DNA from: an uncultured bacterium
GTDB lineage: Bacteria; Krumholzibacteriota; Krumholzibacteriia; Krumholzibacteriales; Krumholzibacteriaceae
Direction: 5' to 3'
Assembly (NCBI GenBank): GCA_963813815.1
Contig: CAWFAD010000012.1
Span: 96,001-160,000, forward strand
Length of the DNA stretch: 64,000 nucleotides
Shown here piece after piece: positions 47,441-64,000 of this stretch; positions within the stretch are counted from its first letter, which is position 1; each line of letters opens with the position of its first letter. The translations under genes were made by a program, and so were the position numbers. The notes under the pieces were generated by a model. That model made no database searches, was not told the DNA's origin, and worked only from the letters and a program-made list of their open reading frames with translations.

Positions 47441-47536
47441 CACATCCACCACCCTTCACCTGAGCCGGAGAGGATTGAAACCGATCGCGCGCCGGATTGC
47501 AAGAAAAATCGAGATGCGGGGCCGCTCGCCGCGCGG

Positions 47537-48811
47537 CTATCTGCGGATCACGCCGAGCCGCTTCAGAACGGCGTGCCCCGCGACCGATCCCTTCTCGTAG
47601 CCGTACCAGGCGTCGGCGATCCGCCCCTCGGAATCGATGATGTAGTTGAGCGGAACGGCGCTCTGCCCCTTGAGGGTCTGGTAGCGCCGGTAGTAGAGAT
47701 CCTTGACGGCCGCCGAAGTGTCCGCGGCGTTCGGAAAGGTGATCCGCCGCTCGTCGAGGTACTCGCGCGCCGCGGCGGAGGCGTCCGCGAAGTTCACACC
47801 CACGACGACGAATCCGTTCTTTGCGTGCTTTCCGTAGAGGCGGTCGAGCTCGGGGAGCTCCACGCGGCAGGGCGGGCACGCGAGACGCCAGAAGCAGAGC
47901 CATACGGTCTTGCCGCGCTGATCGAAGAGGTTGAATCGCGAGCCGTCGAGGAGCGTGACCGTAAAGTCCGGCGCCTCGCTCCCCGGCAAGAGCAGCCCGT
48001 CGACGAGACCCGGCAGGCGGTATTCGGTCCAGCCCGCCGGCGGCTTCCATGAAAACAGATCGTCCGCGAGCGGCGAGTTCACGGAAACCGCCCGCCAGTC
48101 CTCGCGCTTCACGATCTCCCGGCCGAGCCTCACGGTTTCCACGATGCGCCGGGGGAGGCGGTCGCACCGCGCGATCCAGAACACCCGGCTCCGGCGGCGC
48201 TCTTCGTACTCGGCGGCGACGACGTCGCAGACCTCGCCGTCGACCGCGGCGCTCCCCATGCCGCGCACCTCGACGAGAAACGGCTTCATCGGGTCCTGGA
48301 GGCCGTGAAAGACGCTCGGATCGAGGATCGGCGTCGACATGCCCGTCCCGAGATTGCTCGTTTCGCGGCCGATCGAATGCGAGCCCTCGCGCGCGCTCTT
48401 TCGCATGAACGAGTTCATGCCGCCGGAGGACGCCGCCGACGAATCGATCCCCTGAATGAGCGGTCTGCCCGTCGGCCACCAGATCCACATGTCGCGGCCG
48501 TCGACCACGATGATTCCCGTCCGCGAGAGGTCTCCGCTCCGCGACTCGAGGCGCCCGAAGTTCGGCTTTTTGAGGCGCAGCGCGTAGGTAGAACGTCCGA
48601 TCTCCCTCCCGTTCGACTCCCACACGCACTCGCTCTCGACGGAGAGGGTTTTCGCTCCGCGGATCGCCTCGTGCATTCCCTCGAAAATCGAGAGCGCGGC
48701 GGCGCCCTCGCGCCCCGTGCCTTTCGGGCCCGGCCCGCTCGCGAGCGGCGACGAGAGCGCTATCAGCGCGGCGGCGAGCGAGATCGCCGCCCTTCCGAGA
48801 ACAATCGTCAT
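47537..48811 (-). CDS. Secreted LolA-like domain + TlpA-like redoxin
   Basis: Signal peptide; KKPNFGRLE...IVVDGRDMW; GSEAPDFT, FWRLACPPCRVELP, VPLNYIIDSEGRI. Confidence 0.8.
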   Translation of the reverse strand: MTIVLGRAAISLAAALIALSSPLASGPGPKGTGREGAAALSIFEGMHEAIRGAKTLSVESECVWESNGREIGRSTYALRLKKPNFGRLESRSGDLSRTGIIVVDGRDMWIWWPTGRPLIQGIDSSAASSGGMNSFMRKSAREGSHSIGRETSNLGTGMSTPILDPSVFHGLQDPMKPFLVEVRGMGSAAVDGEVCDVVAAEYEERRRSRVFWIARCDRLPRRIVETVRLGREIVKREDWRAVSVNSPLADDLFSWKPPAGWTEYRLPGLVDGLLLPGSEAPDFTVTLLDGSRFNLFDQRGKTVWLCFWRLACPPCRVELPELDRLYGKHAKNGFVVVGVNFADASAAAREYLDERRITFPNAADTSAAVKDLYYRRYQTLKGQSAVPLNYIIDSEGRIADAWYGYEKGSVAGHAVLKRLGVIRR

Positions 48812-50964
48812 ACGAGCCCCCATGCCTTTCGTACGATCCACTCGGCCCCGAGCAGCGCCACAAGGCCGAGAAATCCGAACGCGCTTCCGCGCAGATCGCG
48901 TGCGCTCCGTATCTCCACGCTTTTTCCCGGGAGATTCCATACCGCGGCGGCCGAGTCGAGCGCGGAGCGCTCGACGCACGCCCCCTTCGTCTCCGCCGCC
49001 GTTCTCGCCAGCAATGCGCGGTCCGGGGATGTGTCGAGAAACTCGACCGAGAGCGGCTCGACGGAAAACTCCACCGGCCTCGACGCGCCGAGGGCTCCCG
49101 GCGGCGACTCGACGGCGACGGCGCTGTAGTCTCCGGGCGCGAGCCCGTCGAGCGCCGCCCGAAAGATGCCCGGACGCCGTGGATCGGGCTCGAAGAGGAA
49201 CGTCGCCTCGACGACCGGGGAATCGCCCGATGGGCGGCGCAGCTCGCCGCGAAGACCTTCCGGCGCCTCCCGCTCGCCGATCGAGGCGGTGAAGCGGATA
49301 CGATCCCCGCTTCGATAGAGAGCGCGATCGGCGTCGAGCGCTATCGGCGGCGATTTCGCGCCTTCGGCCAGATATTGAACGATGCCGCCGAGGAGCGATT
49401 CATAGGCGCGGGCTCCCTCGTTCCCGGCGAGCCTCCAGCGCCACAGGGGAAATCCGAGGACGGCGGCCGAGAGCCCCTTGCCCCGGCGGTCGATCACGAG
49501 AAGCGATCCCCCACCGGCCCCCTCGAGAGCGAGCGGAGATCGCGCCCCGGCGCTCGGCGCGAGACCGGCGATCCGCGCGGGAAAGGGCGGCAGCGCGGCG
49601 ATCGAACCGGCCGGGACGAGCGACGCGGCGGAGGGCTCGACGGCGGCCTCCTCCGGGGCCTTCACGAACCACTCCGCGTACTCGACCCGGATCGCTCCCG
49701 CGCGGCGGACGGGAAGCACCCGCTCGAGAAGCGCGAAGGAGGCCTCGCGCGCCATCGGCGACTCCTCCCCGGCGAGAAAGAGAACGCTTCCCCCCTCCTC
49801 CACGTATCGCTCGAGCGTCTCGACGTTTTTCCGTTCGCCGAAGAGCCCTCCGTCGTCCCCCACGATCACGAGATCATAGGGGGCGAGACCGCGGGAGGAG
49901 GCGGGGAACGTCCAGGACGCTCCTCCGGGATCGAGCACGAGGCTCGAGCCCGATATCCGGAGCGCGATGTCGGCGTCGAGGCGCTTCGAACGCCTCGCAA
50001 GATCCCGCAGAAACGCAGTGTTCCAGTCGGCGAGCTCGTCGATCGAGAGCACGCGAATCTTTTCCCCGCGAACGTCGAGCCGAATCGATTCGACGTTGTT
50101 GCCCGGATCGTCCCCGGCCCGCGCGGGGATCGCCTCGATCGTGAGACGGCGCGATCCCTCCCGTTCCGGGACATAGTCGAAGACGGCGCTCAGGTCCTCG
50201 GCTTCGAGCCGCGCCGCGAGCCGGACGATTCCTTTCGGCTCTCCGTCCTCGAGAAGGCGGGCTTCGATCGCGCTTCCGCGGCAGCCGGCCGTCCGGATGA
50301 CCGCCTCCACCCGGAGCGACGTGCCTCGATAGGCGATTCGGTCGGCGACGATCTCGGCGATCGATACCTCCACGCCCCGCGCGGTGTCGCCGTACCCGAC
50401 GGCGAAAACGGGCGCGCCCGAGGCTCCCGCGCGAGAGGCCATCCCTCGCGTCACGCGGCCGTCGCTGAGAAGCACGATGGAAGCGATGCCGCCCGGATGC
50501 CGCCGGCGCGCGGCCTCGAGAGCGCCTCCGATGTCGGTGCCGTCGCCATCCGGCGAAATGCTGTCGGACGATAGAGGGGATGAGGCGAGCGCCTCCGCGA
50601 AGGGCAGCACCTCCACCTCGGCTCCCCTCCTCTCGAGCGCGGCCCGCACGATCGACGCGTCCTCGAGCGCCGCCTCGATCCTGCTCCGTTCCCCTTCATC
50701 CCGGATCCCCATGCTGCGCGACCGGTCGATCAGCACGAGCACGAGCGGCCGCCGCCCTTCCGTGCGGGACGAGACGAAGGCAGGATTGACGACGAGAAGC
50801 GCGAGCATCAGGAAGCTCCCCGCGCGAAGCGCGCGGAGAAGCGCCCGCCGCGCGGGAGGAAGCGGAGGCGCCGTGCGACGATACGCCGCGAGGGAATAGA
50901 CGACGAGACCCGCGGCGAGAACCGCCGCCCAAACGTCGAACCTCATCGCAAAATCCAATTGCAT
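48808..50964 (-). CDS. Membrane-anchored vWA-domain protein with glutamine-amidotransferase-like region
   Basis: N-terminal TMs; MIDAS DRSRSM...TDIGGAL...LLSDG; YDLVIVGD...GGSVLF; C-terminal TM ending EWIVRKAWGLV. Confidence 0.8.
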   Translation of the reverse strand: MQLDFAMRFDVWAAVLAAGLVVYSLAAYRRTAPPLPPARRALLRALRAGSFLMLALLVVNPAFVSSRTEGRRPLVLVLIDRSRSMGIRDEGERSRIEAALEDASIVRAALERRGAEVEVLPFAEALASSPLSSDSISPDGDGTDIGGALEAARRRHPGGIASIVLLSDGRVTRGMASRAGASGAPVFAVGYGDTARGVEVSIAEIVADRIAYRGTSLRVEAVIRTAGCRGSAIEARLLEDGEPKGIVRLAARLEAEDLSAVFDYVPEREGSRRLTIEAIPARAGDDPGNNVESIRLDVRGEKIRVLSIDELADWNTAFLRDLARRSKRLDADIALRISGSSLVLDPGGASWTFPASSRGLAPYDLVIVGDDGGLFGERKNVETLERYVEEGGSVLFLAGEESPMAREASFALLERVLPVRRAGAIRVEYAEWFVKAPEEAAVEPSAASLVPAGSIAALPPFPARIAGLAPSAGARSPLALEGAGGGSLLVIDRRGKGLSAAVLGFPLWRWRLAGNEGARAYESLLGGIVQYLAEGAKSPPIALDADRALYRSGDRIRFTASIGEREAPEGLRGELRRPSGDSPVVEATFLFEPDPRRPGIFRAALDGLAPGDYSAVAVESPPGALGASRPVEFSVEPLSVEFLDTSPDRALLARTAAETKGACVERSALDSAAAVWNLPGKSVEIRSARDLRGSAFGFLGLVALLGAEWIVRKAWGLV

Positions 50965-51096: not shown

Positions 51097-51534
51097 CTAG
51101 CCGTTCTTCGTCCCGTGCGTGCTGCCGACCTTGGCGTCCGCCGGGCTCCCCGATTTATCGGAGCCGGCGTCGCCGGCGGCCTTGCCGAAGGCCTTGACCG
51201 CTTCCGCAACGGTGTCGAAGCTCTGGAGGATCGTCTGGAACTCGAGCAGCTCGAAAACCTCGTACACGTCGGCGACCATGGAAGCGAGCTTGAGATCGCC
51301 TCCGTTTTCACGGATCGATTTGATCTCGCTGATAAAGATGCCCCAGCCGGCCGACGATATGTAGTTCACGCCCGCGAGGTCGATGACGATGTTGAAGCGG
51401 TTCTTCTTGAGCAGTCTCTTGAGACTCTCCTCGAGCTCCGCCGACGTCGTGGTATCCACGAACCCCTGCACGGAAAGAACCGACACGTCCGGGTTTTCCT
51501 CGGGCTTCGAGAACGATACGTTGATCCCTTCCAT
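51097..51534 (-). CDS. STAS-domain anti-sigma factor antagonist
   Basis: GFVDTTTS, DLAGVNYISSAGWGIF, VYEVFELL. Confidence 0.9.
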   Translation of the reverse strand: MEGINVSFSKPEENPDVSVLSVQGFVDTTTSAELEESLKRLLKKNRFNIVIDLAGVNYISSAGWGIFISEIKSIRENGGDLKLASMVADVYEVFELLEFQTILQSFDTVAEAVKAFGKAAGDAGSDKSGSPADAKVGSTHGTKNG

Positions 51535-51559
51535 GGCAACCTCGCTCCTTCTTCCAGCG

Positions 51560-51928
51560 CTATGATGCTTTCGTGTTTTGAGACGCCGCGAACGCGGCGA
51601 TTGCTTCCTCGCGCGTTCCGTAGGGCCGAAGCAGCGTGCTGAACTCGAGGAGCTCGAAAACCTCTCTCACGTCCGGATGCATGGCCGTGAGCTTGATGTC
51701 TCCCCCCCGCTGGCGTATCCCCTTGATCTCGCCCACGAAAATCCCCCAGCCCGCGGAGCTGATGTAATTCACCTCGCTGAGATCGGCGACAATGCGAACG
51801 GTGTTCGACGCGACGAGCTCGTTGAACGTATCCTCGAGAAACTGCGCCGTGCCCGAATCGATGATGCCACCGAGCTTCAGGACGACGACGTTCTCCACGT
51901 ACTCTTCGCTAATAACGAGCTTGTCCAT
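51560..51928 (-). CDS. STAS-domain anti-sigma factor antagonist
   Basis: GIIDSGTA, DLSEVNYISSAGWGIF, VREVFELL. Confidence 0.9.
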   Translation of the reverse strand: MDKLVISEEYVENVVVLKLGGIIDSGTAQFLEDTFNELVASNTVRIVADLSEVNYISSAGWGIFVGEIKGIRQRGGDIKLTAMHPDVREVFELLEFSTLLRPYGTREEAIAAFAASQNTKAS

Positions 51929-51973
51929 TATCTGGCCAGTCCTCTCCTCTGCCCCACCCTGAATTAGCAAACT

Positions 51974-53092
51974 TCAGTCCAATAATGCCTTTAAAAGGAT
52001 AAATATTCCCTGCTTGTCGTTCTCGGACAACCGCAGGTTTTTCTGCGCCTTCTGGTAATTCCCGTTGATTTCGAGCGCCTTTTGAAAGGCCTTGTTGGCC
52101 CTGTCCATGAATATCTTGCATTTTGCGGTATAGAGGATGCCGAGGCTGTTGTGCCCGTCGGCGAAGGTCGGGTTCTGGTCGACGATCTGGCGCACGCTCT
52201 CGAGATGCCCCTCGATATCCTCCTCGCGTAGATTTTCGCCGTCGTACAGAAGCATCAGGTAGAGGTCGAGCACGATGTCCTCGATCCCGCCCCGCTCGGA
52301 GCGGCCACCGGCGCTCTCGAGGGCCTCGTACGCGAGCTCGTACTCCTTGCCCCGAAACAGGCTTCTCGCCTCCTCGACGCGGTTGGAGGCGAGGTACGGA
52401 TCGAGCTGCACGGCCCGGTCGAGATTGCCGAGAAACGCCGTATCGAGATCGCGCGCGAGCTCGTAATCCTCCTTGATGATCGTGTTGAGGAGAAAGGCAC
52501 GTGCGAGGTTGAGGTAGGGCTCGCCGTAGTAGAGATTGAGCCCGATGGCCCGGTTGAAGCAATCAATCGCGGCGCGGCATCGGCGCTGTTTGAGGTGTAT
52601 CACGCCGAGCAGGTTGTGCAGATCGGGGTACTCGGGATTGATCGCGAGGCCGTTTTCCACGGCCTTTATGGCCGCGTCGAATTTTCCGGCCTCGAAGCTG
52701 CACGAACCGATGATCAAATGAGGAAGGGAATCCTTGTTTCCCTTTTCGATCGCATGCCGCGCCTCCTGGATCGCCTCGTCCAAGAGATGGCGCCTCGCGA
52801 GCGCCTGCGCCACGCGCAGATGCGGCTTCGGATCGTCGCTCTGGCGCACGCGGTCGGTCACGCCGAGCAGAATGAGGAAGCGCCGCTTGTTCTCGAGATG
52901 CGCCTCCTTCGTGGCCCGGCGCAGGGCTTCCGCGGGCGCCTTGCCGTCGATGGCGACGTCCGTCGTATCGAAGGGAACGCCGTTCCTGAAGAACGAGCTC
53001 TGAATGATCCCCTTTTGAGGAAGCATGCTCGTCTGCAGAAAATACTTCCGCCCGGCGTGATCGATTTCCTCTCTCAGCTCGAACCCCGTCAC
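51974..53092 (-). CDS. Cytoplasmic TPR protein with an uncharacterised N-terminal domain
   Basis: NPEYPDLHNLLG, NPTFADGHNSLG, AFQKALEINGNYQKAQKNL. Confidence 0.88.
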   Translation of the reverse strand: MTGFELREEIDHAGRKYFLQTSMLPQKGIIQSSFFRNGVPFDTTDVAIDGKAPAEALRRATKEAHLENKRRFLILLGVTDRVRQSDDPKPHLRVAQALARRHLLDEAIQEARHAIEKGNKDSLPHLIIGSCSFEAGKFDAAIKAVENGLAINPEYPDLHNLLGVIHLKQRRCRAAIDCFNRAIGLNLYYGEPYLNLARAFLLNTIIKEDYELARDLDTAFLGNLDRAVQLDPYLASNRVEEARSLFRGKEYELAYEALESAGGRSERGGIEDIVLDLYLMLLYDGENLREEDIEGHLESVRQIVDQNPTFADGHNSLGILYTAKCKIFMDRANKAFQKALEINGNYQKAQKNLRLSENDKQGIFILLKALLD

Positions 53093-53119
53093 CGGATCTC
53101 CTTCCGTGCCGCCCGGATC

Positions 53120-53128
53120 ATGCTAGCA
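53120..53128 (-). promoter_or_regulatory. Possible internal extended -10 promoter before TPR-STAS-STAS
   Basis: TGCTAGCAT (TGn + TAGCAT) in the 58-nt gap, followed by a GGAAGGAG SD. Confidence 0.35.
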
Positions 53129-53150
53129 CGGTCCGTGCGCCCGCGCCAGC

Positions 53151-53927
53151 TTACCCTTCCCTCTCCCCGCCGGCGCAGCGTGCGCCGGCGCGATCGAGGC
53201 CGAGGATCTCCTCGGTGAGATGGTAATAATCGAACGCTCCGCGCGAAAGCGGCGCGTGTTCGAATATCGTCTTCTGCCGCCCCGGGGCCTCCCGGATCGC
53301 CTGATTCGCCCTGATGACCGTTTTGAGGAGCCGGCCTCCGAAGCGCTCGCGAAGGCTCTCGAGCATGCTGTGCGCGAGCCGGGTGCGCGAATCGTAGAAC
53401 GTCGGCAGCAGCCGAATCGCAATCGGTCCGCGGCCGTTCCACGCCTGGATTTCCTCGACGATCTCGGCCGTCTGCACCGCGCCCGCCTCCGCCAGATAAT
53501 CCATCGAGACGGGGATGATCACCTCGTCGCAATAGGCCAGCGCGTTGATGTTGATGAGGTTCAACGACGGCGAGCAATCGCAGATCACGTAATCGCACCC
53601 CTTGAGCTGTTTCAGCGACTCGGAGAGGCGCTGCTCGCGGTTGACGCGCGAGCCGAGCGTGAGCTCGACCTCCGCGAGGCGCCGGCCGCCCGAATCGATG
53701 AAGAAGAGATTGTCGCGCACCTGGAGAATCTCGACTTCTCCCGAGGTCAGAAGGTCCGCCAGCCCGCGCTCCCCGCGGACGCCGAGGCTGAGGGCCACGC
53801 TCCGCTGCGGATCGCAATCGATGAGGAGCACCCGCTTCCCCGTGAGCGAGAGACCGTGCGACAGGCACAGCGCGGTCGTCGTCTTGCCGGTTCCGCCCTT
53901 CATGGTCATCACAGCGTACTTTTTCAT
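53151..53927 (-). CDS. ParA/Soj-family ATPase (orphan)
   Basis: KGGTGKTT deviant Walker A, IDCDPQ, CDCSPS, PTFYDSRT, IREAP. Confidence 0.92.
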   Translation of the reverse strand: MKKYAVMTMKGGTGKTTTALCLSHGLSLTGKRVLLIDCDPQRSVALSLGVRGERGLADLLTSGEVEILQVRDNLFFIDSGGRRLAEVELTLGSRVNREQRLSESLKQLKGCDYVICDCSPSLNLININALAYCDEVIIPVSMDYLAEAGAVQTAEIVEEIQAWNGRGPIAIRLLPTFYDSRTRLAHSMLESLRERFGGRLLKTVIRANQAIREAPGRQKTIFEHAPLSRGAFDYYHLTEEILGLDRAGARCAGGEREG

Positions 53928-53949
53928 GCCGCAGCCCAAACGCGCCCTT

Positions 53950-56900
53950 CTACTTCTTGCCCCGCGGCTTGCGATCCGAGTTGCGCAGCCGTTTGCCGTA
54001 TTCGTCCCAGCCTATCCGCGTGATGCGCTTGTCTTTGTCTTCGCGGACGTCCGTTCGCTTCTTGAAATCGATGAAAATCACTTTCTCCGGATCCGCGACC
54101 CGCTCGAGCGGTTCGAGCGGAGCGATCTTCGAGGCGCCCAGAAGCGCGTCCGCGAGATCCTGCTTCCGGTCCTCGGGCTCGGGGGCGGGCGCTCCCGCGG
54201 GCGCTCCGGGACCGGGCGCCGCCTCGGGCGGCGCGAAATCCGCGGCGCCTTTCGCCGGCGCCAGCTCCGCGAGCGCCATTTCGAGCGTTCCGTAATGCGG
54301 AATGAGCGGCTCGAAACCGAGATCGCGGAATATATTGAGAATGCTCGAGCTCATGCCGGCGATGGCGATGCGCCCGCCGGTTTCGCCGAGCTTCTGAAGA
54401 TACCTGATGATGATGCCCCATCCCCCGCTCGATATGTACACCATGCGTTCGACGTCCAGAATGAGATTGAGCGGCCGCTCATCCGCGCGCCGCGAGAGCT
54501 CCGCCTCGAACGCTTCGGCCGTCGAGGAATCGACGGCGCCGTCGATCGTCACCACGACGGTCCCTCCGACCGCGCGGGCGTCGCCTGCGGAAGCGATCGC
54601 GAGCGGCGTCCCGGCGCCCTCGGTCCGCTCCGCGCGGGGAGCCGCGGCGGCCTCGTCCGGAGGCTCCTCGTCGAGGATCTCCCCATCCGCGAGCGTCGGC
54701 GCCTCGTTCTTGAAATCCTCTATCGCCTCGGCCAGAACGCCGAAGGAGCGCATGATCGAGTCGAACCCGAGCAAGCTATAGATGCCGTCGACTTCCTGAT
54801 CCATGCCGAAGATCTTGAGATCGCCGCCCCGCAGTCTGATGTCCTTGATGCGCGAGGCGAACACTCCCCAGCCGCTCGAGCTCACGTACTCGACGCGCGA
54901 CATATCGATGACGATCTTCACCGCGCCGCGGTCGACGAGCCCGTCCAGAACGGAGCGGAGGTTCACGCAGCTCACCGTGTCCACGACCCCGTCGAGGTAC
55001 AACACGGTGATTTCCCCCTGATCTCCGACCGTCCCCGCCTCGATCTTGAGGGCGGCCCACGACGAATCCGTCTCCGGGACCTCTCCGGGCCCCGACGCGC
55101 CGGAAGCCGCCGTGGACTGGCGCGTTTCGAGCGTTCTGAGCGGGGCCGGGCGGGCCGATTCCCTCTCGAGTCGGCTCCGCCGCTCCGCGAGCGGGAGCGA
55201 GATATAAGCCGCCGCTTCATCGACCGTCGCGAACTGGAGGATGATCTCCTGGAAGCCGAGGAGCTCGTAGATGTCGTACACCTCCGGCGACATGCTGGCG
55301 AGCACCACGTCCCCCTCTCCCTCGCGAAGCGATTTGACCCGCCCCGTGAAGATTCCCCAACCGCCGCTCGATATGTACATCACCCCGGCGAGATCGACGA
55401 TGATCTTGCGGTATCCGTACTCGTGCACGCTTTCGAGAATTCCCTCGAGCTCTCCCGCCGACGAGGAATCGAGGTGGCCGGCCACGTGCAGCACCACCAC
55501 GTCCCCCGCGAGCTCCTCCGATGTGACCTCGATCGCCCGTCCTTGGCCGGTCCCGAACGACTCGCGGGCGCCCCGCCGGCGCAGCGGCGGCGCGCTCTCG
55601 CGACGGAGGGACGGCGCCGCAGCGGCCGGACGAGCTTCGGGAACGCTCGCCGGCGCCGCTTCCTCCGGGGCGGCTTCCGCGGGGGCCTGCGGCGCCCCGG
55701 CTGCCTCGGCGGCCGCCTCGGCCGGACGGCCGTGCGCGGCGACGAGCTTCTTGAACTCCTCGTCGGAAATGAACCGGTTGCGGCGCAGATACTCGAGCCG
55801 CATTTCGTAGGTGTTGAGCCGGATGCGCTTGAGCTCGTCGTAAACGATGGCGGGCGAGAGCAGGTCGCCCTCCGCCTTTCCCTCGTTGAACGCCGCGGTG
55901 ATCTTCTTCGCGCCGTAGCGGGGATGGTCGCGAATGATCCCGAGAAGCCCCTTCCGCTGCTCGATGCTCACGCGCCGGATATCGACCTCGCGTCGCAGCG
56001 TCTTGTCCTGCAGCCCCCGCTCCCCGAGCTCCTCGAGGCGCTTCTTGTATCGATAGTAGGTCGACGGCGACACCCGCATCATCCGGCAGGCCTCGGCGAC
56101 CGCCACCCCCTGCACCTCGACGAGATCGAGGAGCTTCCGCCGGATGCCGTAGAGCACCTCGTCCGCCTGGAGCTTCTCCTTGATTGCGACCACGGTGATG
56201 TCGTCGTTCTGCGGCTGATCGCCGGTAAAGCTCTTGATGTCGTCGTTGAGGCGATCGATGAACTCCTGCGGGGCGAGACGTCCGCACTGCTTGATGAGCC
56301 TGATGAGACGCTCCTCGCCGTATTGGTTGCGAGCGCCGTTCATCGCCTCCGTCACGCCGTCCGTATAGATGACGAGCATGTCGTCCTTCTTGAGCTTGAT
56401 CTTCTCGACGTCGATCGAGCGGCGGAAGAGCGTGTCGTCGGGCAGCTTGATGCCGACCGGAAATCCTCGCGGGTTGAGAAAATACGTCTCGTCCGTCTCG
56501 GCGCGGTAGAGGATCATCGGATTGTGGCCGGCCGAGGCGTAGCTGATGATGCGGTTTTTCGAATCGAGGATCGAGTAGAAGATCGTAACGAACATGCCTT
56601 TTTTCATGTCTTCCGTCACGAAATCGTTCATGCGCGCCATGACCTCGGCGGCCGAGTGGTTGCCCCGCGCCTCCATGCGCAGAGCCGTCCGGATCATCGT
56701 CATAACGAGCGAGCCGGGCACTCCCTTGCCGGAAACGTCCGCGACGACCACCCCGAGCGTGTCGTCGTCGACCCGCACGAAGTCGTAGTAATCGCCGCCG
56801 ACCTCCTTGGCGGCCCGGTAGAGGCTCGCGATGTCGTAGCCGCCGATCGTGGGGACGCGCTTCGGGAGCAGCGTCTGCTGGATTTCCTGCGCGACCTGCA

Positions 56901-58182
56901 TCTCCTTGTGGAGCCGCTCCTGCTCGACGACGTTCTTCTGGGCCTCGCGGAACTTCGACGTTATCTCGTTGAAGGCCCGGGCGATCTCGCCGATTTCCTG
57001 CGGCCCCGTGATTTGGATCTCGTCGCTGAGCGAGCCCTCGCCGATGGCGCGCACGCCGTCGGTGAGCGCCTGGATCGGGCGGACGAAAATGGCCACGAGC
57101 AGGTAGCTGAGCGCCACCCCGGCGGCGAATACGCCGACGAGTATGAGCGTCATCATGGGCCGCGGGTCGATGATATCGCCCGTCGCGATCGCCTCGGAGA
57201 TGCCCACGACGACGCGTCCGATCTCGGAGGTCTGCCCCCGCTCGGAATCGGTCAGGTAAACGGCCTGATGAAACTCGCGAATGAGACCGAGGCTGTCGTG
57301 GGCCACCGTCCGGTACGCGGCGCCGCGATCGAGCGAGCGCACCTCGGCGGGAATCGCGTACGTCGTGAGAAACTCGTCCTGCTGGTTCGAAGCGAAGATG
57401 CGCCCGTCGGCGTGCACGACGCGGATATACTTCACCTCGGGATACCGCTTTATCTGCCGCGGAATCGCATCCGTGCTGAGCTCGAGCCCGCTCACGTCGT
57501 AGGGATCCTTCGTGAGCGCGCCGACGCTCAGGCTCGCGATGGTTTCGGCGACCCGCTTGCGCTGCAGCCAGGTGTCGGCGAATCGGTCGCGCAGCTCGTT
57601 CGTCTGACGGTAGAGGAGAATCGCCCAGAGGAACACGACGAGGCCGAAGAGGCCGAGCGTCGTGCGCAACGCGAACTTGAATCGGAGCGTCGAGGTCCAC
57701 TTCGGCCGCCTGATCGAGCCGAAGAGCTGCGGCCGCGCGGCGGCCGCGGCCGAGTTTTTTACCATGTAGAGGCGATTCCCCGTCGGCGAAGCCGAATAGC
57801 TCAAATTGTCCATGAGGCGGTTCATCAGGTAGATGCCGAGACCGCCCTTCTTGCCGATTTCGACATAATGGTCGAGGTCGGGCTCCTTGACCTTGGACCA
57901 GTCGAAGGGCTCGCCGCGGTCGAAGATGCTGATCTCGACCGTGCCCGGACCCGCCTGAACGTCGATCCGGATGTCTCCGGCTTTCTCTTTGTACGCGTGT
58001 TTGATGATGTTCGTGCATGCTTCATCGACGGCGAGCTTCGTGTTGTTCGTTTCGCCCTTCGAGAATCCCGCGCGATCGCAGATGCCGGCGATGAAATCCC
58101 GGACCTCGCTCAGGTTGTTCTCGTCCGCGGGAACCTCGAGATGGAACGTCTCGCGCTCCCGCATGCGCTCGCCGCGTTTCAC
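53950..58182 (-). CDS. Multidomain partner-switching protein: RsbW-type HATPase - TM - extracytoplasmic domain - TM - HAMP - SpoIIE/PP2C - HTH - 3x STAS
   Basis: DEACTNIIKHAY/DRGEPFD/GGLGIYLM; two TMs; RPIQAL...EIGEIARAFN; VGGDYYD/DVSGKG/YTDGVTEA/DDITVV; AEACRMMRVSPSTYYRY; three Y(I/V)SSxGWG STAS motifs. Confidence 0.9.
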   Translation of the reverse strand: MKRGERMRERETFHLEVPADENNLSEVRDFIAGICDRAGFSKGETNNTKLAVDEACTNIIKHAYKEKAGDIRIDVQAGPGTVEISIFDRGEPFDWSKVKEPDLDHYVEIGKKGGLGIYLMNRLMDNLSYSASPTGNRLYMVKNSAAAAARPQLFGSIRRPKWTSTLRFKFALRTTLGLFGLVVFLWAILLYRQTNELRDRFADTWLQRKRVAETIASLSVGALTKDPYDVSGLELSTDAIPRQIKRYPEVKYIRVVHADGRIFASNQQDEFLTTYAIPAEVRSLDRGAAYRTVAHDSLGLIREFHQAVYLTDSERGQTSEIGRVVVGISEAIATGDIIDPRPMMTLILVGVFAAGVALSYLLVAIFVRPIQALTDGVRAIGEGSLSDEIQITGPQEIGEIARAFNEITSKFREAQKNVVEQERLHKEMQVAQEIQQTLLPKRVPTIGGYDIASLYRAAKEVGGDYYDFVRVDDDTLGVVVADVSGKGVPGSLVMTMIRTALRMEARGNHSAAEVMARMNDFVTEDMKKGMFVTIFYSILDSKNRIISYASAGHNPMILYRAETDETYFLNPRGFPVGIKLPDDTLFRRSIDVEKIKLKKDDMLVIYTDGVTEAMNGARNQYGEERLIRLIKQCGRLAPQEFIDRLNDDIKSFTGDQPQNDDITVVAIKEKLQADEVLYGIRRKLLDLVEVQGVAVAEACRMMRVSPSTYYRYKKRLEELGERGLQDKTLRREVDIRRVSIEQRKGLLGIIRDHPRYGAKKITAAFNEGKAEGDLLSPAIVYDELKRIRLNTYEMRLEYLRRNRFISDEEFKKLVAAHGRPAEAAAEAAGAPQAPAEAAPEEAAPASVPEARPAAAAPSLRRESAPPLRRRGARESFGTGQGRAIEVTSEELAGDVVVLHVAGHLDSSSAGELEGILESVHEYGYRKIIVDLAGVMYISSGGWGIFTGRVKSLREGEGDVVLASMSPEVYDIYELLGFQEIILQFATVDEAAAYISLPLAERRSRLERESARPAPLRTLETRQSTAASGASGPGEVPETDSSWAALKIEAGTVGDQGEITVLYLDGVVDTVSCVNLRSVLDGLVDRGAVKIVIDMSRVEYVSSSGWGVFASRIKDIRLRGGDLKIFGMDQEVDGIYSLLGFDSIMRSFGVLAEAIEDFKNEAPTLADGEILDEEPPDEAAAAPRAERTEGAGTPLAIASAGDARAVGGTVVVTIDGAVDSSTAEAFEAELSRRADERPLNLILDVERMVYISSGGWGIIIRYLQKLGETGGRIAIAGMSSSILNIFRDLGFEPLIPHYGTLEMALAELAPAKGAADFAPPEAAPGPGAPAGAPAPEPEDRKQDLADALLGASKIAPLEPLERVADPEKVIFIDFKKRTDVREDKDKRITRIGWDEYGKRLRNSDRKPRGKK

Positions 58183-60089
58183 CGCGCACCCCCCGCTCCG
58201 CCGCTGTTCTGAAGGCGCTTGCGGGCCTCCCCGATGTTCCTCAGCACGCTCTCGTTATCGGGATCGATTTCGAGAATCCGCTGCCACCGCTCGACGGCCT
58301 TCAGGTAATTCCCGTCCGTGAAATGCTTCATTCCCTCGAGATAGAGAGCGCGCACCTCCGCCTTTTCGCCGTCGCTGAGCGGGGTCATGCGCCGCTCGGC
58401 GCGCAGCAGCAGGGTTCGCGCCTCCGCGTGCTTCGGATCGATGGAGAGCAGCTCCCTGATCTGTTTCACGGCGTCCGGATACCGCCCCTCCCCGAACGAC
58501 CTCACGGCGCCGTCGTAGAGCTCCGCGACCCGGAGCCGCTTGGCCGTCGTGAGATAATCCCGGCTCATCTCGTCGACTCGCTCGTTCAGCCGCTCCACGG
58601 CTGCGAGCGCCTCGGCGGATTCGGGCACGATCGTCCGGACCATATTCCACTCGCCGAGTGCGGCTGCGAGCTGTCCCTGCCGCTCGAGATCGAGGGCCCG
58701 CTCGCGGTGCTGCGCCGCGAGGCCATCGAGCTTCTCCTCGGTCGCTCCGAGATACTCCGCCGCCTGCCCGTTCTCCGGATCGATCTCGAGGACACTCCGC
58801 CATTCCGCGCGGGCGCGGATATAATCTCCCGTGCCGTAGTATTCGAGTCCGAGACGGAAGTGACGGTTCGTGAGGGCCGCTTTTTCGGCGTCCTTCGTCC
58901 GCTGCTCTTCCGCTGCGAGAACGTCGCGCTCGACCACGCTGATGGTGTCGGCGACGGCCCGGCTCGTCGGATCGTACTCGAGGGCGATTCTGAGCTCGTC
59001 GAGCGCCTTCGCCGGCTGCCCATCGCGCCGGAACTGCTCGGCGGAGGCAATGTGGCCGGCGATCCTCCTCGTGAGCATCTGCTGGATGCGACGTTCTTCG
59101 TCGGCGAGGCGCCGCTCCTCGCGCAGCCGTATACGGTCGTCGATCGAGGATCCGATCCGGGCGGAGAGCGAGAGCGGATGCGCGCTTCCGGCCTCCTCGC
59201 GGCTCAGATAGCCGTAATCGAATCCGAAGCCGTGCCAGCCGACGCCGACCCCCGCCGTGATGCTTTGCCCGTCGTATCCGGCGCGGATCGCGAGAAAGTC
59301 CCGGAACCGGTACTCGGCCCCGGCCCGCACCTTCGTGTCGCCGCGCGCGGGAAGATCCATCTGCGCCGCCAGCACGAGCGCGGAGCTCTTTCCCAGCGCG
59401 CGGGCGTAGCCGGCGCCGATCATCACGGTGCGGTCCACGGGCTCGCTCACCGAGACGAGCTTGATCTCCGCGCCGACGATATCCTGAAGGTTGCACCCGA
59501 CGCGGAGGCCCTCCAACCAGCGCGGCTGGTACACGAATCCGACGTCGAGCCCCGTGCCGGTATCCGAGAAATCTCCGACGCGCTGGCTCAGCATCTTCGC
59601 CGACGAGCCGACGGTGACCGCGCCGGCGTAACGCCACGGCAGCGTGTACGCGTAGGCGACGATCATCTGACTCTCGCGGTAGCTGAGCTCGCCCGTTTCA
59701 CGGCTCCACTCGTCGAACCCGCGGATGCCCCCCGTCCCCGCCGTCATGAAGCCCGCGCCGAGGGCGCCGGCGGAGATCGTCGGATACACGAAACCGAGAA
59801 AGTCGTATCCCGTGTCGCTCCATCCGGAAAAGAGCTGCGCGTGGCTCGCGAGCACCGCGGTGTACCGGTTGAGCGCGAGGGCGGCCGGGTTGTAGAACAA
59901 CGCCGACGCGTCGTCGCCCACGGCGGAGAAGGCTCCCCCCATGGCGATCGCCCGCGCCCCCGCCCCGACGGCAAAGATCGAGCTCGTGCCGCCCGTTCCC
60001 TCCTGCGCCGCGACGCTCGACACGAGCATCGCCGAGAGCAGGACGGCGGTCAACGCCGCATACCGATGGTTCGTTCGCATACCCATCAC
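58179..60089 (-). CDS. PorV/PorQ-like outer-membrane barrel fused to C-terminal TPR repeats
   Basis: Signal peptide; GAGARAIAMGGAF.AV.DDASALFYNPAAL; DVGFVY, IRAGYD, FDYGY; TPR units (WRSVLEIDPEN, WQRILEIDPDN). Confidence 0.85.
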   Translation of the reverse strand: MMGMRTNHRYAALTAVLLSAMLVSSVAAQEGTGGTSSIFAVGAGARAIAMGGAFSAVGDDASALFYNPAALALNRYTAVLASHAQLFSGWSDTGYDFLGFVYPTISAGALGAGFMTAGTGGIRGFDEWSRETGELSYRESQMIVAYAYTLPWRYAGAVTVGSSAKMLSQRVGDFSDTGTGLDVGFVYQPRWLEGLRVGCNLQDIVGAEIKLVSVSEPVDRTVMIGAGYARALGKSSALVLAAQMDLPARGDTKVRAGAEYRFRDFLAIRAGYDGQSITAGVGVGWHGFGFDYGYLSREEAGSAHPLSLSARIGSSIDDRIRLREERRLADEERRIQQMLTRRIAGHIASAEQFRRDGQPAKALDELRIALEYDPTSRAVADTISVVERDVLAAEEQRTKDAEKAALTNRHFRLGLEYYGTGDYIRARAEWRSVLEIDPENGQAAEYLGATEEKLDGLAAQHRERALDLERQGQLAAALGEWNMVRTIVPESAEALAAVERLNERVDEMSRDYLTTAKRLRVAELYDGAVRSFGEGRYPDAVKQIRELLSIDPKHAEARTLLLRAERRMTPLSDGEKAEVRALYLEGMKHFTDGNYLKAVERWQRILEIDPDNESVLRNIGEARKRLQNSGGAGGAR

Positions 60090-63000
60090 TTCGCCACGGC
60101 GATCTTGAAGAGCGCCGATTGCGAGCCAGCCTCGACCTTGCAGAGATACACGCCGTTTCTCACCGTTTCTCCGCGGGCGTTCCGCCCGTCCCAGGGGATC
60201 TCATGCATGATCCCGTCGGCGGAGCCGGTGCCGCCCTCCTCGCCCGAGGCGATTTCCTTCGTCCAGACGAGAATGCCGGCGAGATCGTAAATGCGGATCG
60301 ATACCGCCGCGTCCTCGAGCAGGAAGTAGCAAATGCGCGTTTCCTGCGATCCCGCGGCGAAGGGGTTCGGATAGTTGTGGACATAATCCTCGAAGCGCGC
60401 GCTCAGAACGGTCAGCGGACCGCTCAGGAACGAGCCGGCGATGTCCCCGCCCTGATCGTCCACGACGCCGACGCGCGATCCCGCGCCGCCGCCCTCGAGC
60501 GTGATCGAGAAAACGACGTCGGCGCTCTCTTCGATTTCGAAGCGAATCTCCCCTGCCGGGGCGTTCGCCGCGATATCGGCGGTGAGGAGCAGCGTGTCAG
60601 CGGCGCCGGGAACGACCTCGAACGCATGTCCCGCCACGATCGGCACCGGGTTCGCCTCCGAGACCGCCGCCTCGAAGCGAACCCCTCCCGCCACGAGCGC
60701 GACGCCCGACACCCGCCGCGAAGGCGGCGAGACGAGCCGGCCGGTCCCGTCCTTGATCGCCACGTAGAGCGTATCGAGCCCGATCGTGTAACCCGACGTG
60801 TTCTCGAACTCGGCGCGCATGATCGGCACGCCGGCGGCCCCCTGGGGAACGACGACCGGCGGGATGGTATCGAGGGAGGAGAGGTTCAACATGCGCACGG
60901 CGCCCGTCTCCGTCTGCACCGGCAGGAACACTTCGCCCGTCGTCACCGCGCAGGCGAGGTTCGTGTTGACGTCCTCCGCCAGCGGCTCGACGAACCTGAT
61001 CTGCAGGTTCCCGGGGGACGTGGGCTCGGCGGGCGCGCGCACGTTCCACGCGACGGGCTCGCCCGGATAGAACGGCTTCCGGTAGGTCTCGCCCGCTCCG
61101 TCGAGATCGTAATTCTGGCCCGAGGGCAGGACGAGCTCGATCCGCGCTCCCGCCGTGTCGACGCCCGCCTCGCCCGCATTGGCCGCCGTCGCTTCGATCG
61201 TGAACGACTGATTCACGGACAGGATCCCGTCGAGCGCCCCGTCGGGACCCGATATCCGCCCGGCGAGGGCGAGAGCCGCTTTTTCGACCGCGCGCACGGC
61301 GAACACGACGCGGCGAACGGGGAGCCGCTCGCCCGAGTTGGCGTCCACGCCTCCCGCCCGTCCGACGAGCGTGTCGACCGGAGCGGCGATCGAGGGCGCC
61401 CGAACGGTCCAATCGAGCGTTACGAGCTCTCCGGCGCCGGCTCCGACAAACTTGATCATGTCCCCCGCGACGGCGTACCCGGCGGGCGCCGAGAGCTCGG
61501 CCCACACCGAATCGGCGTTGACCGAGGGAACGAGCGCCACGCGCGCGACGAACTCCTGATCCGTCGAGAGAACGCCGTCGACGGCTCCCGCGGGGGCCGC
61601 CACGGACACCGAGCATTCGGCGATGCCTCCGGCCTCTTCCGTACGCGCGACGATGCGCGACTCGGCGGTTTGGATTGCCGCGGGCGAGCCGATATTGATG
61701 TCGTTCGGAACGGAGCTGATCGACGCCCGCAGGGTGTCGAGCGACGGAGCCGCCGGCGCTACCAGCGTCCACTCGAGCGGCGCGCCCGCGTCGAACCGCC
61801 TCGTGAGCGGATCCGCCGGATCGGCGAGGCTCATCGAGACCGGCAACGCGAGCGTCACCCTGCCCGTCGTATCGATCGCGGCTTCTCCCGCGTTTTCGAC
61901 GAGAACGGTCACGACGAAGATCTGACCGGTCGAAAGCGTGTCGTCGATCGCCCCCGCCGGCGAGGTGATGGAAGCGCCGCACGCGAGGAGCGCGGCGGTT
62001 TCAATCCTCAGATTCTCGATCGACTCGACGGCCTCCGCCGGCGTCACGGGCTCTCCCGTGTTGACGGAAACCGCCTTCACGATCGAGGCGCGCAGATATT
62101 CCACGGCGCTCGACGGCGCCGCCGTCACCGCGTAGACGAAATCCCGTTCGGTTCGCGACGGCATGTAGGCGAGAGAGTCTCCCTCGACGAGGGTGCCCGA
62201 AACGCCGCTCGTCGCGAGCCTCACGAGAACGCTGTCGAGATCGTCCCCGCCCGTATTCTCCACCCGCACCGTGAGGTTGAAGGTCTGGCCGGTGTTGACG
62301 ATCGACGTGTTCGCGAATGAGGCGTTGTTCGGCGCGTCGCTCGTCACGGCGACTATTCTGAGCCCGGAAGGAGGCCGCACGAGCACCGATCCGCTCCCCG
62401 AGGCCGGCGGTCGCGGCGCCTCGGGCTCGTTGCCGTCGATCCAACCGAGCGTGGCGGCGATATCGACCGAGCCGGTATCGCGGCCCGTCGCGGCGATTCG
62501 ATAGAGAAGCGTATCGGCCGCGCCTCCCTCGAGCACGAGCGGCGAGGCTCCCGACACGAAGGTCTCCGGCGCGATGACGAGGTACCCTCCGACCGAAACG
62601 CCGTCGATGGAGAATGCCAGATCGTCCGAAGCGGCGGCGTCGATCTCGAGCGGCGCCTCGCCGTCGTTCCGCACGCCGACATCGATGGTCCACTCGATGG
62701 TCTGTCCGGCGTTCACCGCCTCCTGCGAAGGGGTGACGGCGGTCACGACGAGCGCCGCCGGTCTCTGTATCACGGCCAGCGCCGTATCATCCACGGCGGC
62801 GTCGAACAGCACGTAATCGCTCTCACCCGAGTTGGCGTCGACGGCCGAGCGGATGCGCGCCGTGAAAATCTCCGAGCCCTCGCCATCCGCGGTCACGAGA
62901 AACGTGTCGGAAGCCGACGCGAACCCGGCGATGGCATCGATGAAGACGAGGGTGTCGGCGATGGCGGACGAGCCCGAACCCTCGAGCGCGACGCCGACGT

Positions 63001-64000
63001 TCTCGACTCGCGCCTCGCCGCCGTTCGCAACTTCGGCGACGACGACGAACTGCTGCCCCGAGTCGACGTACGGCGCGCGCGGAGCCGCGGTGGCCGCGAG
63101 CGCGACCGCCAGCCGGGCCTGCGCCTGCACGCGGATCGAGCCCGAACCCGAGCCGTCGAGCCGCGTGTCGTAGGAACGATGAACGCCGTTGTTGTTCTCC
63201 ACGAGCTCGACGTCCGCATGGAGCTCGATGTCGGCGCCCGCGGGAATCTCCGGCGTCGGAGAAACGGAGAACACGAGGTGGCGGCATTCGCCGCCCGGCA
63301 GATCGAGCCCCCCCTCGACGAACGCCGGCGGCCGCGCATGGGCGAGCGGCAGACCCTCGTCGCGGTAGACGCGCGCGCTGTCGGGGATGAGCGTGAGATC
63401 AGCCTCCCCCGCGTTGCAGACCTCGCACGCGATCTGCCACGGGGTCGTTTGCGCCGAGGTCACGGTCGCCCGCGAGGGCGCGCTCGAAACGACGGCGGGA
63501 TCGCCGGGCAGCTCGACCATGACGTGGCTGAAACCGCCGCTATAGGTATCGTCAGAGACGGTGAGATTGCTGTTGACGTCGGTGCCCGTCACCGTTCCGT
63601 TCACGAGGGCGATGCCCGGGGTCGAACCCGTGGAGGTCACCGTGAAGAGGAGACTGTCGACCGCCCCTCCCGGAAGAATGGCGCCTCCGATGCCCGAGAG
63701 CGCCGCCGGGCGTACGACGGTATATTCATACGTCCGGTCTCCCACCCCGACGATCGTAAAGGTGAGGAAGGTCTTCGCCGCCGCGAGATCGAGGGAAACG
63801 GACGCCTCGCCGCTGTTCCGGAGCTTCATCCATACGTTCCACGGCTCCGTCTGGGAGCGGGTCACCGATTGAGGCGTGACGATGCCGCTGATACCGAGCT
63901 GGGGCGCCTGCTCCACGAGAACGGAATCGGGCGAGAGCGGCAGCACGGTCGAGAACGGATTGCCGTTCTCCTCCCCGACGAGCCGGATGAACGCGGCGTG
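60086..64000 (-). CDS. Giant secreted/surface protein with Ig-like repeats and a FlgD/T9SS-like C-terminal domain (5' end outside the window)
   Basis: At least 1286 aa, open towards the window edge; repeated xxQxF/W...NxGEA units; C-terminus HNYPNPF...IRIYDLAG...WDGRN..G..V.NGVYLCKV. Confidence 0.88.
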   Translation of the reverse strand, partial: HAAFIRLVGEENGNPFSTVLPLSPDSVLVEQAPQLGISGIVTPQSVTRSQTEPWNVWMKLRNSGEASVSLDLAAAKTFLTFTIVGVGDRTYEYTVVRPAALSGIGGAILPGGAVDSLLFTVTSTGSTPGIALVNGTVTGTDVNSNLTVSDDTYSGGFSHVMVELPGDPAVVSSAPSRATVTSAQTTPWQIACEVCNAGEADLTLIPDSARVYRDEGLPLAHARPPAFVEGGLDLPGGECRHLVFSVSPTPEIPAGADIELHADVELVENNNGVHRSYDTRLDGSGSGSIRVQAQARLAVALAATAAPRAPYVDSGQQFVVVAEVANGGEARVENVGVALEGSGSSAIADTLVFIDAIAGFASASDTFLVTADGEGSEIFTARIRSAVDANSGESDYVLFDAAVDDTALAVIQRPAALVVTAVTPSQEAVNAGQTIEWTIDVGVRNDGEAPLEIDAAASDDLAFSIDGVSVGGYLVIAPETFVSGASPLVLEGGAADTLLYRIAATGRDTGSVDIAATLGWIDGNEPEAPRPPASGSGSVLVRPPSGLRIVAVTSDAPNNASFANTSIVNTGQTFNLTVRVENTGGDDLDSVLVRLATSGVSGTLVEGDSLAYMPSRTERDFVYAVTAAPSSAVEYLRASIVKAVSVNTGEPVTPAEAVESIENLRIETAALLACGASITSPAGAIDDTLSTGQIFVVTVLVENAGEAAIDTTGRVTLALPVSMSLADPADPLTRRFDAGAPLEWTLVAPAAPSLDTLRASISSVPNDINIGSPAAIQTAESRIVARTEEAGGIAECSVSVAAPAGAVDGVLSTDQEFVARVALVPSVNADSVWAELSAPAGYAVAGDMIKFVGAGAGELVTLDWTVRAPSIAAPVDTLVGRAGGVDANSGERLPVRRVVFAVRAVEKAALALAGRISGPDGALDGILSVNQSFTIEATAANAGEAGVDTAGARIELVLPSGQNYDLDGAGETYRKPFYPGEPVAWNVRAPAEPTSPGNLQIRFVEPLAEDVNTNLACAVTTGEVFLPVQTETGAVRMLNLSSLDTIPPVVVPQGAAGVPIMRAEFENTSGYTIGLDTLYVAIKDGTGRLVSPPSRRVSGVALVAGGVRFEAAVSEANPVPIVAGHAFEVVPGAADTLLLTADIAANAPAGEIRFEIEESADVVFSITLEGGGAGSRVGVVDDQGGDIAGSFLSGPLTVLSARFEDYVHNYPNPFAAGSQETRICYFLLEDAAVSIRIYDLAGILVWTKEIASGEEGGTGSADGIMHEIPWDGRNARGETVRNGVYLCKVEAGSQSALFKIAVAK

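Follow-up and report, generated by a model that had tools for sequence, protein, structure and literature searches.

A recurring gene cassette joining a TPR-armed PorV-family barrel to a partner-switching membrane sensor in Krumholzibacteriota and other candidate phyla

The closest described relatives of the system reported here lie on two sides of the cell envelope. On the cytoplasmic side, SiaABCD of Pseudomonas aeruginosa joins a membrane PP2C phosphatase to a protein kinase and a small switch protein and has no sigma factor; when dephosphorylated, that switch protein turns on a diguanylate cyclase for biofilm formation, the signal of SiaA is given as unknown, and no barrel, tetratricopeptide repeat (TPR) protein or cargo is named in the sia operon (PMC7278518). 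In Vibrio fischeri, the single protein SypE, a response regulator switched by phosphorelay, is both serine kinase and phosphatase on the stand-alone STAS protein SypA and controls biofilm formation, and SypA is reported not to act as an anti-anti-sigma factor (PMC4517449). On the outer-membrane side stand SprB-SprF and PG1035-PorP-PorE, in which a cargo gene is followed by its own shuttle barrel and the cargo is kept at the surface, PorP being linked to the periplasmic protein PorE (PMC12618676, PMC9143113), which is reported to have a TPR domain (PMC12773672). Here we describe seven genes at 51097..64000 of a 64,000-nt stretch (the window, G000:C12:96001-160000, where G000 is the source genome), which encode a giant surface protein of the type IX secretion system kind (T9SS), a PorV-family barrel with a TPR arm, a kinase/phosphatase sensor, a ParA-type ATPase, a cytoplasmic TPR protein and two STAS proteins. 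The set is a real, conserved and undescribed combination of known parts, which resembles SiaABCD and SypE/SypA on its cytoplasmic side and the cargo-shuttle pairs on its outer-membrane side and is a member of none of them.

The likeness to SiaABCD extends to a cyclase in the same position in several copies of the cassette, and the top-ranking fold matches of the sensor include the SiaA PP2C structure. In contrast to SiaABCD, the cassette often fuses kinase and phosphatase and has a serine instead of a threonine at the phosphorylation site; the sensor scored 82 against a cut-off of 700 with the SiaA model NF038263 and no cyclase lies in the G000 operon, so the locus does not qualify as a SiaA-SiaD orthologue. 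Unlike SypE, the sensor has a transmembrane (TM)-Cache-TM-HAMP middle, and its proposed partner is an envelope protein. The SprF/PorP pairs have type B C-terminal domains (CTDs) and a separate, cell-wall-tied PorE, and the accessible text reports no signalling (PMC12618676, PMC9143113), whereas the cassette has a PorV-family barrel, a type A-like CTD, a fused TPR and a receptor as the next gene. RsbU-RsbV-RsbW-SigB of Bacillus subtilis and Rv1364c share with it the same three domain families and a phospho-serine loop (PMC8256260); Rv1364c also fuses RsbU and RsbW domains, and 3ke6 is the top fold match of the sensor, but membrane topology and domain order differ, and the phylum of G000 yielded no SigB/F/G over the family cut-off. 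In CapK/CapS, an anti-sigma-like kinase phosphorylates a DNA-binding STAS-like protein (PMC13373217), to which STAS proteins with a helix-turn-helix (HTH) domain, found in Eisenbacteria and Zixibacteria, look similar. Our literature searches, with subscription papers and supplements largely outside their scope, returned no paper on this combination. In LapA/LapD/LapG, TonB-dependent transducers and RcsF-IgaA a signal also crosses the envelope through a periplasmic part that touches an inner-membrane receptor, LapD having a periplasmic domain, a HAMP and a cytoplasmic module; we liken them by description only, and they differ in barrel, receptor and output chemistry.

Chance would hardly give this gene order. 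In 74 of the 77 related loci from a genome scan, the sensor has the barrel gene directly upstream, mostly overlapping it or within a few bases; the other three contigs start no more than 56 bases from the sensor match, so that the barrel is present in 74/74 loci where room exists, and the conserved synteny on which the first-pass annotation depended was recovered. Among the 77 loci, many of them on short contigs, the giant cargo was found in 55, ParA in 31 and the cytoplasmic TPR gene in 30. The full seven-gene order is the Krumholzibacteriota form and lineage-specific. Eisenbacteria have cargo, barrel, a sensor without STAS and one STAS-HTH protein; in the Zixibacteria forms ParA is added or the HTH is absent, as it is from the sensor in 20/20 sampled weaker Zixibacteria matches and from split forms. 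The fixed seven-part machine that had been envisaged did not survive the comparison, since ParA occurs in some lineages only, the HTH is often absent and cargo is missing in 10 Goldbacteria-type loci, which sit between genes read by eye as rnr and hisD. Sensor matches were found in 91/208 genomes of the phylum of G000 (40/42 in its family, 0/91 and 0/12 in two other families) and, at a looser threshold that includes split forms, in 130/151 genomes around a Zixibacteria genome, 38/121 around an Eisenbacteria genome and 74/99 around a Goldbacteria-type genome. A metagenome scan added six full-length relatives among 80 loci, the rest being partial or generic phosphatases. The later gene counts rest on six-frame hidden Markov model scans; the gene caller missed some genes in high-GC DNA.

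Paralogous and split copies define the unit more closely. Six split loci carry a CTD cargo, a TPR-armed barrel, a TM-Cache-TM-HAMP-PP2C protein of ~500 aa and separate RsbW and STAS genes; their cargo differs from copy to copy, with up to three extra copies per genome among those fetched. Across four candidate phyla, fused and split, the recurring unit is cargo, PorV-family barrel with TPR arm, Cache-HAMP-PP2C sensor, RsbW kinase and STAS, to which ParA, the fused STAS and the IS481-like HTH are accessories. Twelve of all 13 listed split-type second matches in the phylum of G000 have a barrel or arm directly upstream, the contig of the other being too short, and 19 of 20 further Zixibacteria/Eisenbacteria matches (19 split, one fused) have cargo and barrel. 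Seen from the barrel, a sensor adjoins 58/72 TPR-armed barrels with room (next to one other lie RsbW and STAS alone, and next to 13 nothing of the kind) and 0/16 barrels with a beta-rich tail, a control drawn from one phylum; the comparison covers 90 barrel matches ranked by likeness to the barrel profile, which favours the positive class, with two loci excluded for lack of room and four classed by hand. In G000 itself a TPR arm is found on 1/7 barrels, and that barrel alone adjoins a TM-Cache phosphatase.

The TPR stays with the sensor even where the barrel is gone. Among 20 HTH-less fused Zixibacteria sensors, 16 have cargo and barrel and four have neither; in those four, the gene directly upstream of the sensor encodes a signal-peptide protein of ~255-290 aa whose end is the same TPR. 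Twenty Goldbacteria-phylum sensors, chosen from split-type and weaker matches blind to barrels, comprise 11 with a barrel-less secreted TPR protein directly upstream (eight of one orthologous family), four with a TPR or barrel-TPR gene one gene away and five with none. Because the same TPR remains before the sensor in 15 barrel-less loci, the last TPR is the likely ligand of the Cache domain. The linkage of TPR and sensor is strong, not absolute, and points to a coupling of TPR and Cache domain and away from cargo as an obligatory part. Covariation over 125 paired rows (effective 104, which gives little depth) reached a top inter-chain z of 6.1 with 8 pairs >4.5, and six within-clade re-pairings gave top z of 5.5-6.6 and 6-10 such pairs. 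The barrel and phosphatase trees (53/111 pairs) agree within clades and not at deep nodes; their correlation (r 0.48) is not counted as co-evolution, because linkage alone gives it. Orphan cargo-barrel-arm genes (L273, L275, L278) and orphan sensors (L420, L431, L433) occur in the same genomes, G238, G244 and G245, and may be unlinked partners.

In the window, the seven open reading frames (ORFs) are all on the minus strand, with GTGA overlaps at 60089-60086 and 58182-58179 and remaining gaps of 22, 58, 45 and 25 nt, just as the first-pass annotation had read them. The ORF check showed that the cluster is the tail of a longer operon, which begins 11 kb past the window edge with the gene of a 4,954-aa Ig-repeat adhesin. 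This is the surface gene, correctly placed first but cut by the window edge: the C-terminal 1,304 aa are encoded at 60086..64000 (minus strand) and the gene starts at G000:C12:170950. Spacing together with promoter and terminator patterns suggests that the seven genes are co-transcribed. The secreted protein has a signal peptide, 13 Big_1 stretches, 12 Invasin_D3, FlgD_ig (over its cut-off in the window fragment) and a T9SS-type C-terminal domain that scores 22.7 bits with TIGR04183, just below the cut-off of 23; signal peptide, C-terminal sorting domain and a genome with SprA are the marks of T9SS cargo. An atlas search with the N-terminal part of the adhesin returned only unnamed clusters. 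The CTDs of cargo beside dedicated barrels align, as judged by eye, as a subtype apart from most G000 CTDs. A second cargo-barrel pair, lacking arm and sensor, lies at G000:C6:17108-21427, and its CTD is nearer that of the giant protein than others are.

The barrel gene (58179..60089, minus strand) encodes a signal peptide, a beta-barrel at about residues 40-313 and a helical arm of 323 aa. The first-pass annotation had called it PorV: the family holds (108.5 bits with the PorV_fam model NF033709, cut-off 90), so that it has the PorV/PorQ family fold, but it is not the housekeeping PorV (38 against a cut-off of 250 with the equivalog NF033710), and a better PorV-family match (201.9 bits) lies directly after porU on C13 of G000. 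The AlphaFold model (pLDDT 86, pTM 0.55) finds its best fold matches in 8gl6_F and 6h3i_F, chains of T9SS translocon structures. The arm, which we take from barrel topology to lie on the periplasmic side, is built from long helices and TPR hairpins, and its conservation peaks at the last TPR (573-629), which holds the invariant residues A598, W602, P610 and N618. By arithmetic from helix lengths in this model of pTM only 0.55, an extended arm could reach roughly 15-23 nm. Orthologous cassettes from two phyla, at ~27% identity, have arms of 317-335 aa.

The sensor (53950..58182, minus strand; 1,410 aa) begins with an RsbW-type serine kinase (10-144), followed by TM1 (172-190), a single Cache domain, TM2 (347-365), HAMP, a PP2C phosphatase (441-670), two IS481-like HTHs (672-802), three STAS domains and a charged tail. 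With two membrane helices, the Cache domain (57150..57600, minus strand), the predicted receiver of the TPR arm, is periplasmic, and kinase, HAMP, phosphatase, HTHs and STAS are cytoplasmic. The sCache_3_2 match is weak in the sensor (E 9e-5) and reaches E 9e-13 in a split paralogue; HATPase_c_2 scores 107 bits and SpoIIE 174.6 bits. All three ATP-binding motifs of an RsbW/SpoIIAB-type kinase are present in 134/137 fused domains and in just 3/25 stand-alone kinases of split cassettes, and the metal-binding aspartates of the PP2C/SpoIIE type in 128/131 phosphatase domains. The five STAS domains of the operon carry SSxGW loops, the mark of phosphorylatable-serine STAS, and the loops are mostly of this one type across loci; by alignment to SpoIIAA, the acceptor serine presumably lies there. 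The HTH pair matches only positions 2-109 of the 284 in the IS481 transposase model and is not followed by a DDE integrase core, so it is no IS481 transposase; many orthologues end after HTH2. STAS proteins bear a copy of HTH2 in Eisenbacteria (profile probability 98%) and in Zixibacteria (96%). That the last 40 residues of the sensor are a decayed HTH2 was not supported (0.3-0.4%).

We favour a sigma-less partner switch working from the outside in, in which cargo and barrel signal through the arm to the phosphatase and STAS is the readout, a reading that we consider evenly poised between right and wrong. The cargo would leave through SprA and be held at the surface by its own PorV-family barrel instead of the housekeeping PorV, as gene pairing and the cognate shuttles of Bacteroidota suggest. 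The helical arm of the barrel would cross the periplasm, its last TPR binding the sensor's Cache domain. When the cargo-barrel pair changes state, for example through loading, through binding of a ligand or a surface, or through pull, the arm would move, and the movement, passed on through TM2 and HAMP, would switch the PP2C phosphatase against the RsbW-type kinase, the active-site motifs of both being intact. The phospho-state of the SSxGW-type STAS would then control attachment or biofilm outputs by protein contact, the neighbouring genes suggesting as targets often a diguanylate cyclase and elsewhere a histidine kinase, LacI or an IS481-derived HTH; G000 has three fused STAS, an HTH pair and ParA in addition, which probably tether, buffer and position the switch. 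The trans-envelope logic put forward at first pass gains support from the paralogous cassettes and the barrel-less TPR forms, and gene context suggests the physical contact; on genomic grounds, summed over the readings weighed here, a TPR-Cache contact would be very probable, the cause of any arm movement far less certain. The signal could be surface contact or the giant protein's secretion, and the direction of signalling could be inward, as far as sequence can suggest.

Several observations weigh against this reading. Arm lengths of 175, 217 and 255 aa within one genome (G002) fit a rigid ruler poorly, and a fixed periplasmic ruler as a general feature was rejected on this ground. The 13 TPR-armed barrels without a sensor have their counterpart in sensors with no TPR partner nearby (5/20 in the Goldbacteria phylum, 2/30 fused ones in Zixibacteria), and the remaining one of the 20 further Zixibacteria/Eisenbacteria matches keeps a 145-aa remnant only. 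Barrel-less forms have no adjacent cargo, so that cargo sensing is not universal, and 10 Goldbacteria-type loci consist of barrel and sensor alone. No cyclase or kinase follows the operon in G000. The Cache family is generic (149 distant representatives comprise 62 with PP2C, 42 with other outputs and 45 short proteins), and the domain may therefore bind small molecules. The related genomes in our counts are not independent of each other.

The loci without cargo would suit an envelope or assembly checkpoint, in which the TPR-Cache contact reports barrel insertion and loading, or intermembrane distance, instead of contact outside. Besides the 10 Goldbacteria-type loci, barrel-less TPR forms speak for it, two of them beside a barrel-OmpA gene, as do two loci where an OmpA gene separates TPR and sensor, and an arm length that is tightly kept within lineages. 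However, cargo of their own is retained by most paralogues, malectin, CBM9 and GH30 proteins with LacI among it, which suggests cargo-specific signals, and several copies per genome would be redundant for a single envelope check; we regard the checkpoint as unlikely.

For the outside-in switch, the output is probably not one of the usual stress sigma factors. SigB/F/G scored over the TIGR02980 cut-off in 0/121 genomes of the phylum and in 1/14 controls. The 13 sigma-70 matches of G000, read by eye as RpoD, two RpoD/RpoS-like proteins and ECF types, have their nearest members ~40 kb upstream and ~45 kb downstream of the operon, and the sequence beyond 64000 holds none beside it; a cognate sigma factor upstream was thus rejected, in agreement with the first-pass annotation. 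Its alternative, ParA or the embedded HTH as the output, was not supported, since both are present in only part of the lineages, and the HTH, absent from many sensors, is one optional output. In two lineages the gene directly after the cassette encodes a diguanylate cyclase: in Zixibacteria, where polysaccharide export genes often come next, and in a barrel-less family; a GAF-HisKA kinase follows split cassettes, and LacI accompanies malectin, CBM9 or GH30 cargo in other copies.

If the outside-in reading is right, the cassette probably tells the cell about the state of its surface and steers attachment or biofilm formation without the usual stress sigma factor. It would be a new class of trans-envelope signalling, with PorV-family T9SS shuttles as outer-membrane receptors, cargo as surface probe and a TPR protein as Cache ligand, spread as paralogous copies over at least four candidate phyla, with adhesin and carbohydrate-binding cargo and with cyclic di-GMP, two-component or domesticated-transposase HTH outputs; we put this forward tentatively, leaning slightly against it. 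It would give PorV-family barrels a signalling role, single Cache domains a protein to bind, and T9SS-like secretion outside Bacteroidota a connection to a sigma-54 attachment programme. The questions it addresses are how bacteria sense surface contact or the state of a secreted adhesin and how SiaA and other membrane PP2C phosphatases are activated. For these it offers the last TPR as candidate ligand, a candidate receptor domain and a phospho-readout, small soluble pieces that are testable in vitro without culturing.

A sigma-54 -24/-12 promoter pattern was found in 30/31 orthologous upstream regions (shuffles: mean 0.91, maximum 4); in G000 it lies outside the window at C12:171015-171001 (minus strand), ~50 nt before the adhesin start. 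A candidate enhancer palindrome, in a pattern written after seeing the sequences, occurs in 23/31 of these regions (shuffles: mean 2.3, maximum 8), 125-143 or 242-274 nt upstream of the sigma-54 site, in G000 ~260 nt further up; the Krumholzibacteriota palindrome also overlaps a sigma-70-like -35/-10 spacing. G000 has RpoN and 13 strong sigma-54 activator matches. Similar promoters in G000 (C13:27848, C13:35306, C13:35961, C7:453796, C11:115103, C11:174803) stand before genes that we read from their translations as pilB, two pilins, an MglA-like GTPase, a polysaccharide export gene and a likely cyclase (GAF-GGDEF-like), and the pilB upstream region has a palindrome like that of the operon. Sigma-54 thus probably activates the operon along with pilus and polysaccharide genes, and the shared promoter type would place the operon in an attachment programme. 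The pattern is not general: it lies shortly before the cargo frame in 5/11 Zixibacteria regions (in two more, inside the frame), and in 0/4 barrel-less and 0/11 other regions, some of which are truncated. The idea that the conserved upstream motif is an IS481-like HTH site was set aside, the motifs being the sigma-54 consensus and the palindrome also found before pilB. In one relative (L315:5205-5930), several direct repeats, each ~60 nt long, lie in the region upstream of the adhesin promoter.

Such a shared programme raises the alternative that the genes are merely co-regulated, the sensor reading a small molecule and the arm serving as secretion chaperone or cell-wall tether, with a common role in sessile life keeping them together. 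The generic Cache family, the sigma-54-type promoters common to operon, pilB and pilins, the orphans of both partners and a downstream vWA gene kept in 43/77 loci, by which some of the synteny is passive, would all agree with it. We find it more doubtful still than the checkpoint, as 15 loci that have lost barrel and cargo still have the TPR beside the sensor, the pair persists where it has moved to unrelated neighbourhoods, with possible re-pairing at deep nodes, and 0/16 barrels with another tail have a sensor.

Among the accessory genes of the operon, an orphan ParA/MinD-type ATPase (53151..53927, minus strand; AAA_31, 117 bits) accompanies 61 sensors, each of which carries HTH1 together with a long C-terminal extension or fused STAS, and 0/127 sensors that have a short tail and lack fused STAS, in rows that repeat the same genomes and come from two or three lineages only; this confinement suggests that ParA binds the sensor extension. 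Control in the opposite direction, after the manner of LapD/LapG, in which the cytoplasmic phospho-state acting through HAMP would set the shape of the Cache domain, whose grip on the arm would determine if the barrel retains, lets go of or positions the adhesin, and ParA would place the complex, is favoured by the LapD-like topology beside a giant adhesin and by the co-occurrence of ParA with the long sensor tail, but is about as improbable as mere co-regulation, since the phosphatase motifs are intact and very conserved, as expected of an output enzyme, the barrel-less forms have no cargo to release, and no protease gene was seen in the cassette. Returning to the accessories of the outside-in switch, the cytoplasmic TPR protein (51974..53092, minus strand) has TPR matches and no hydrophobic segment; its Zixibacteria orthologue lies within an exopolysaccharide export locus, and an atlas search with its N-terminal domain gave no usable match. 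The first stand-alone STAS protein (51560..51928, minus strand) has a YISSAGWG loop. The second (51097..51534, minus strand) is the most conserved substrate, and its orthologues carry the HTH2 copy in Eisenbacteria and Zixibacteria and are unlinked in Goldbacteria-type genomes (5/5 tested).

As to the secretion background, G000 encodes SprA and PorU over cut-off and ~30 CTD proteins; for the PorL/PorM (GldL/M) motor, no GldM match was obtained in G000, and control genomes likewise gave none. An SprA or SprA-like frame is present in 10/10 tested genomes of relatives from the Zixibacteria, Eisenbacteria and Goldbacteria-type sets, five over and five under cut-off. The Goldbacteria-type genomes G001-G003, G244 and G266 have SprA-like frames below the family cut-off, ~2,100 aa long in 4/5, which would indicate T9SS-like secretion outside the usual groups. 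At L256:712-8001 (G287:C1), a CTD cargo and a TPR-armed barrel are followed by a secreted-looking FliG-domain protein and by MotA and MotB-like genes, with no sensor, possibly a motor coupled to a T9SS shuttle. At L288:2365-7801, L290 and similar loci, a barrel with a 115-aa beta-rich tail stands between a CTD cargo and a 1,000-aa TPR protein, and the MotA/TolQ/ExbB and ExbD-like genes that come next may energise T9SS-like secretion there.

The closest named relatives of the window are mostly Krumholzibacteriota-titled records. A terminator-like hairpin with a T run (51057-51042, minus strand), from a consensus scan, lies 3' of the last STAS gene and is probably the end of the operon; such hairpins are not clearly enriched in the region overall (16 found against 10.6 +/- 3.3 by chance). 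Behind it, at 45737-50964 of the window, lie a vWA-type membrane protein, present in 43/77 related loci, and a lamin-tail CTD protein, present in 33, both probably passive synteny. Farther on, at 41765-43312, is a 515-aa protein with no Pfam match, of which look-alikes, matched by eye, seem to lie downstream in nine related loci. On the other side, beyond the window at G000:C12:171400-176500 (L001:15417-20000), a conserved upstream run comprises two small CBM48 proteins, a 646-aa CBM48 protein, an unknown protein and a PorV-like gene, and is separated from the operon by ~470 nt that include the operon promoter.

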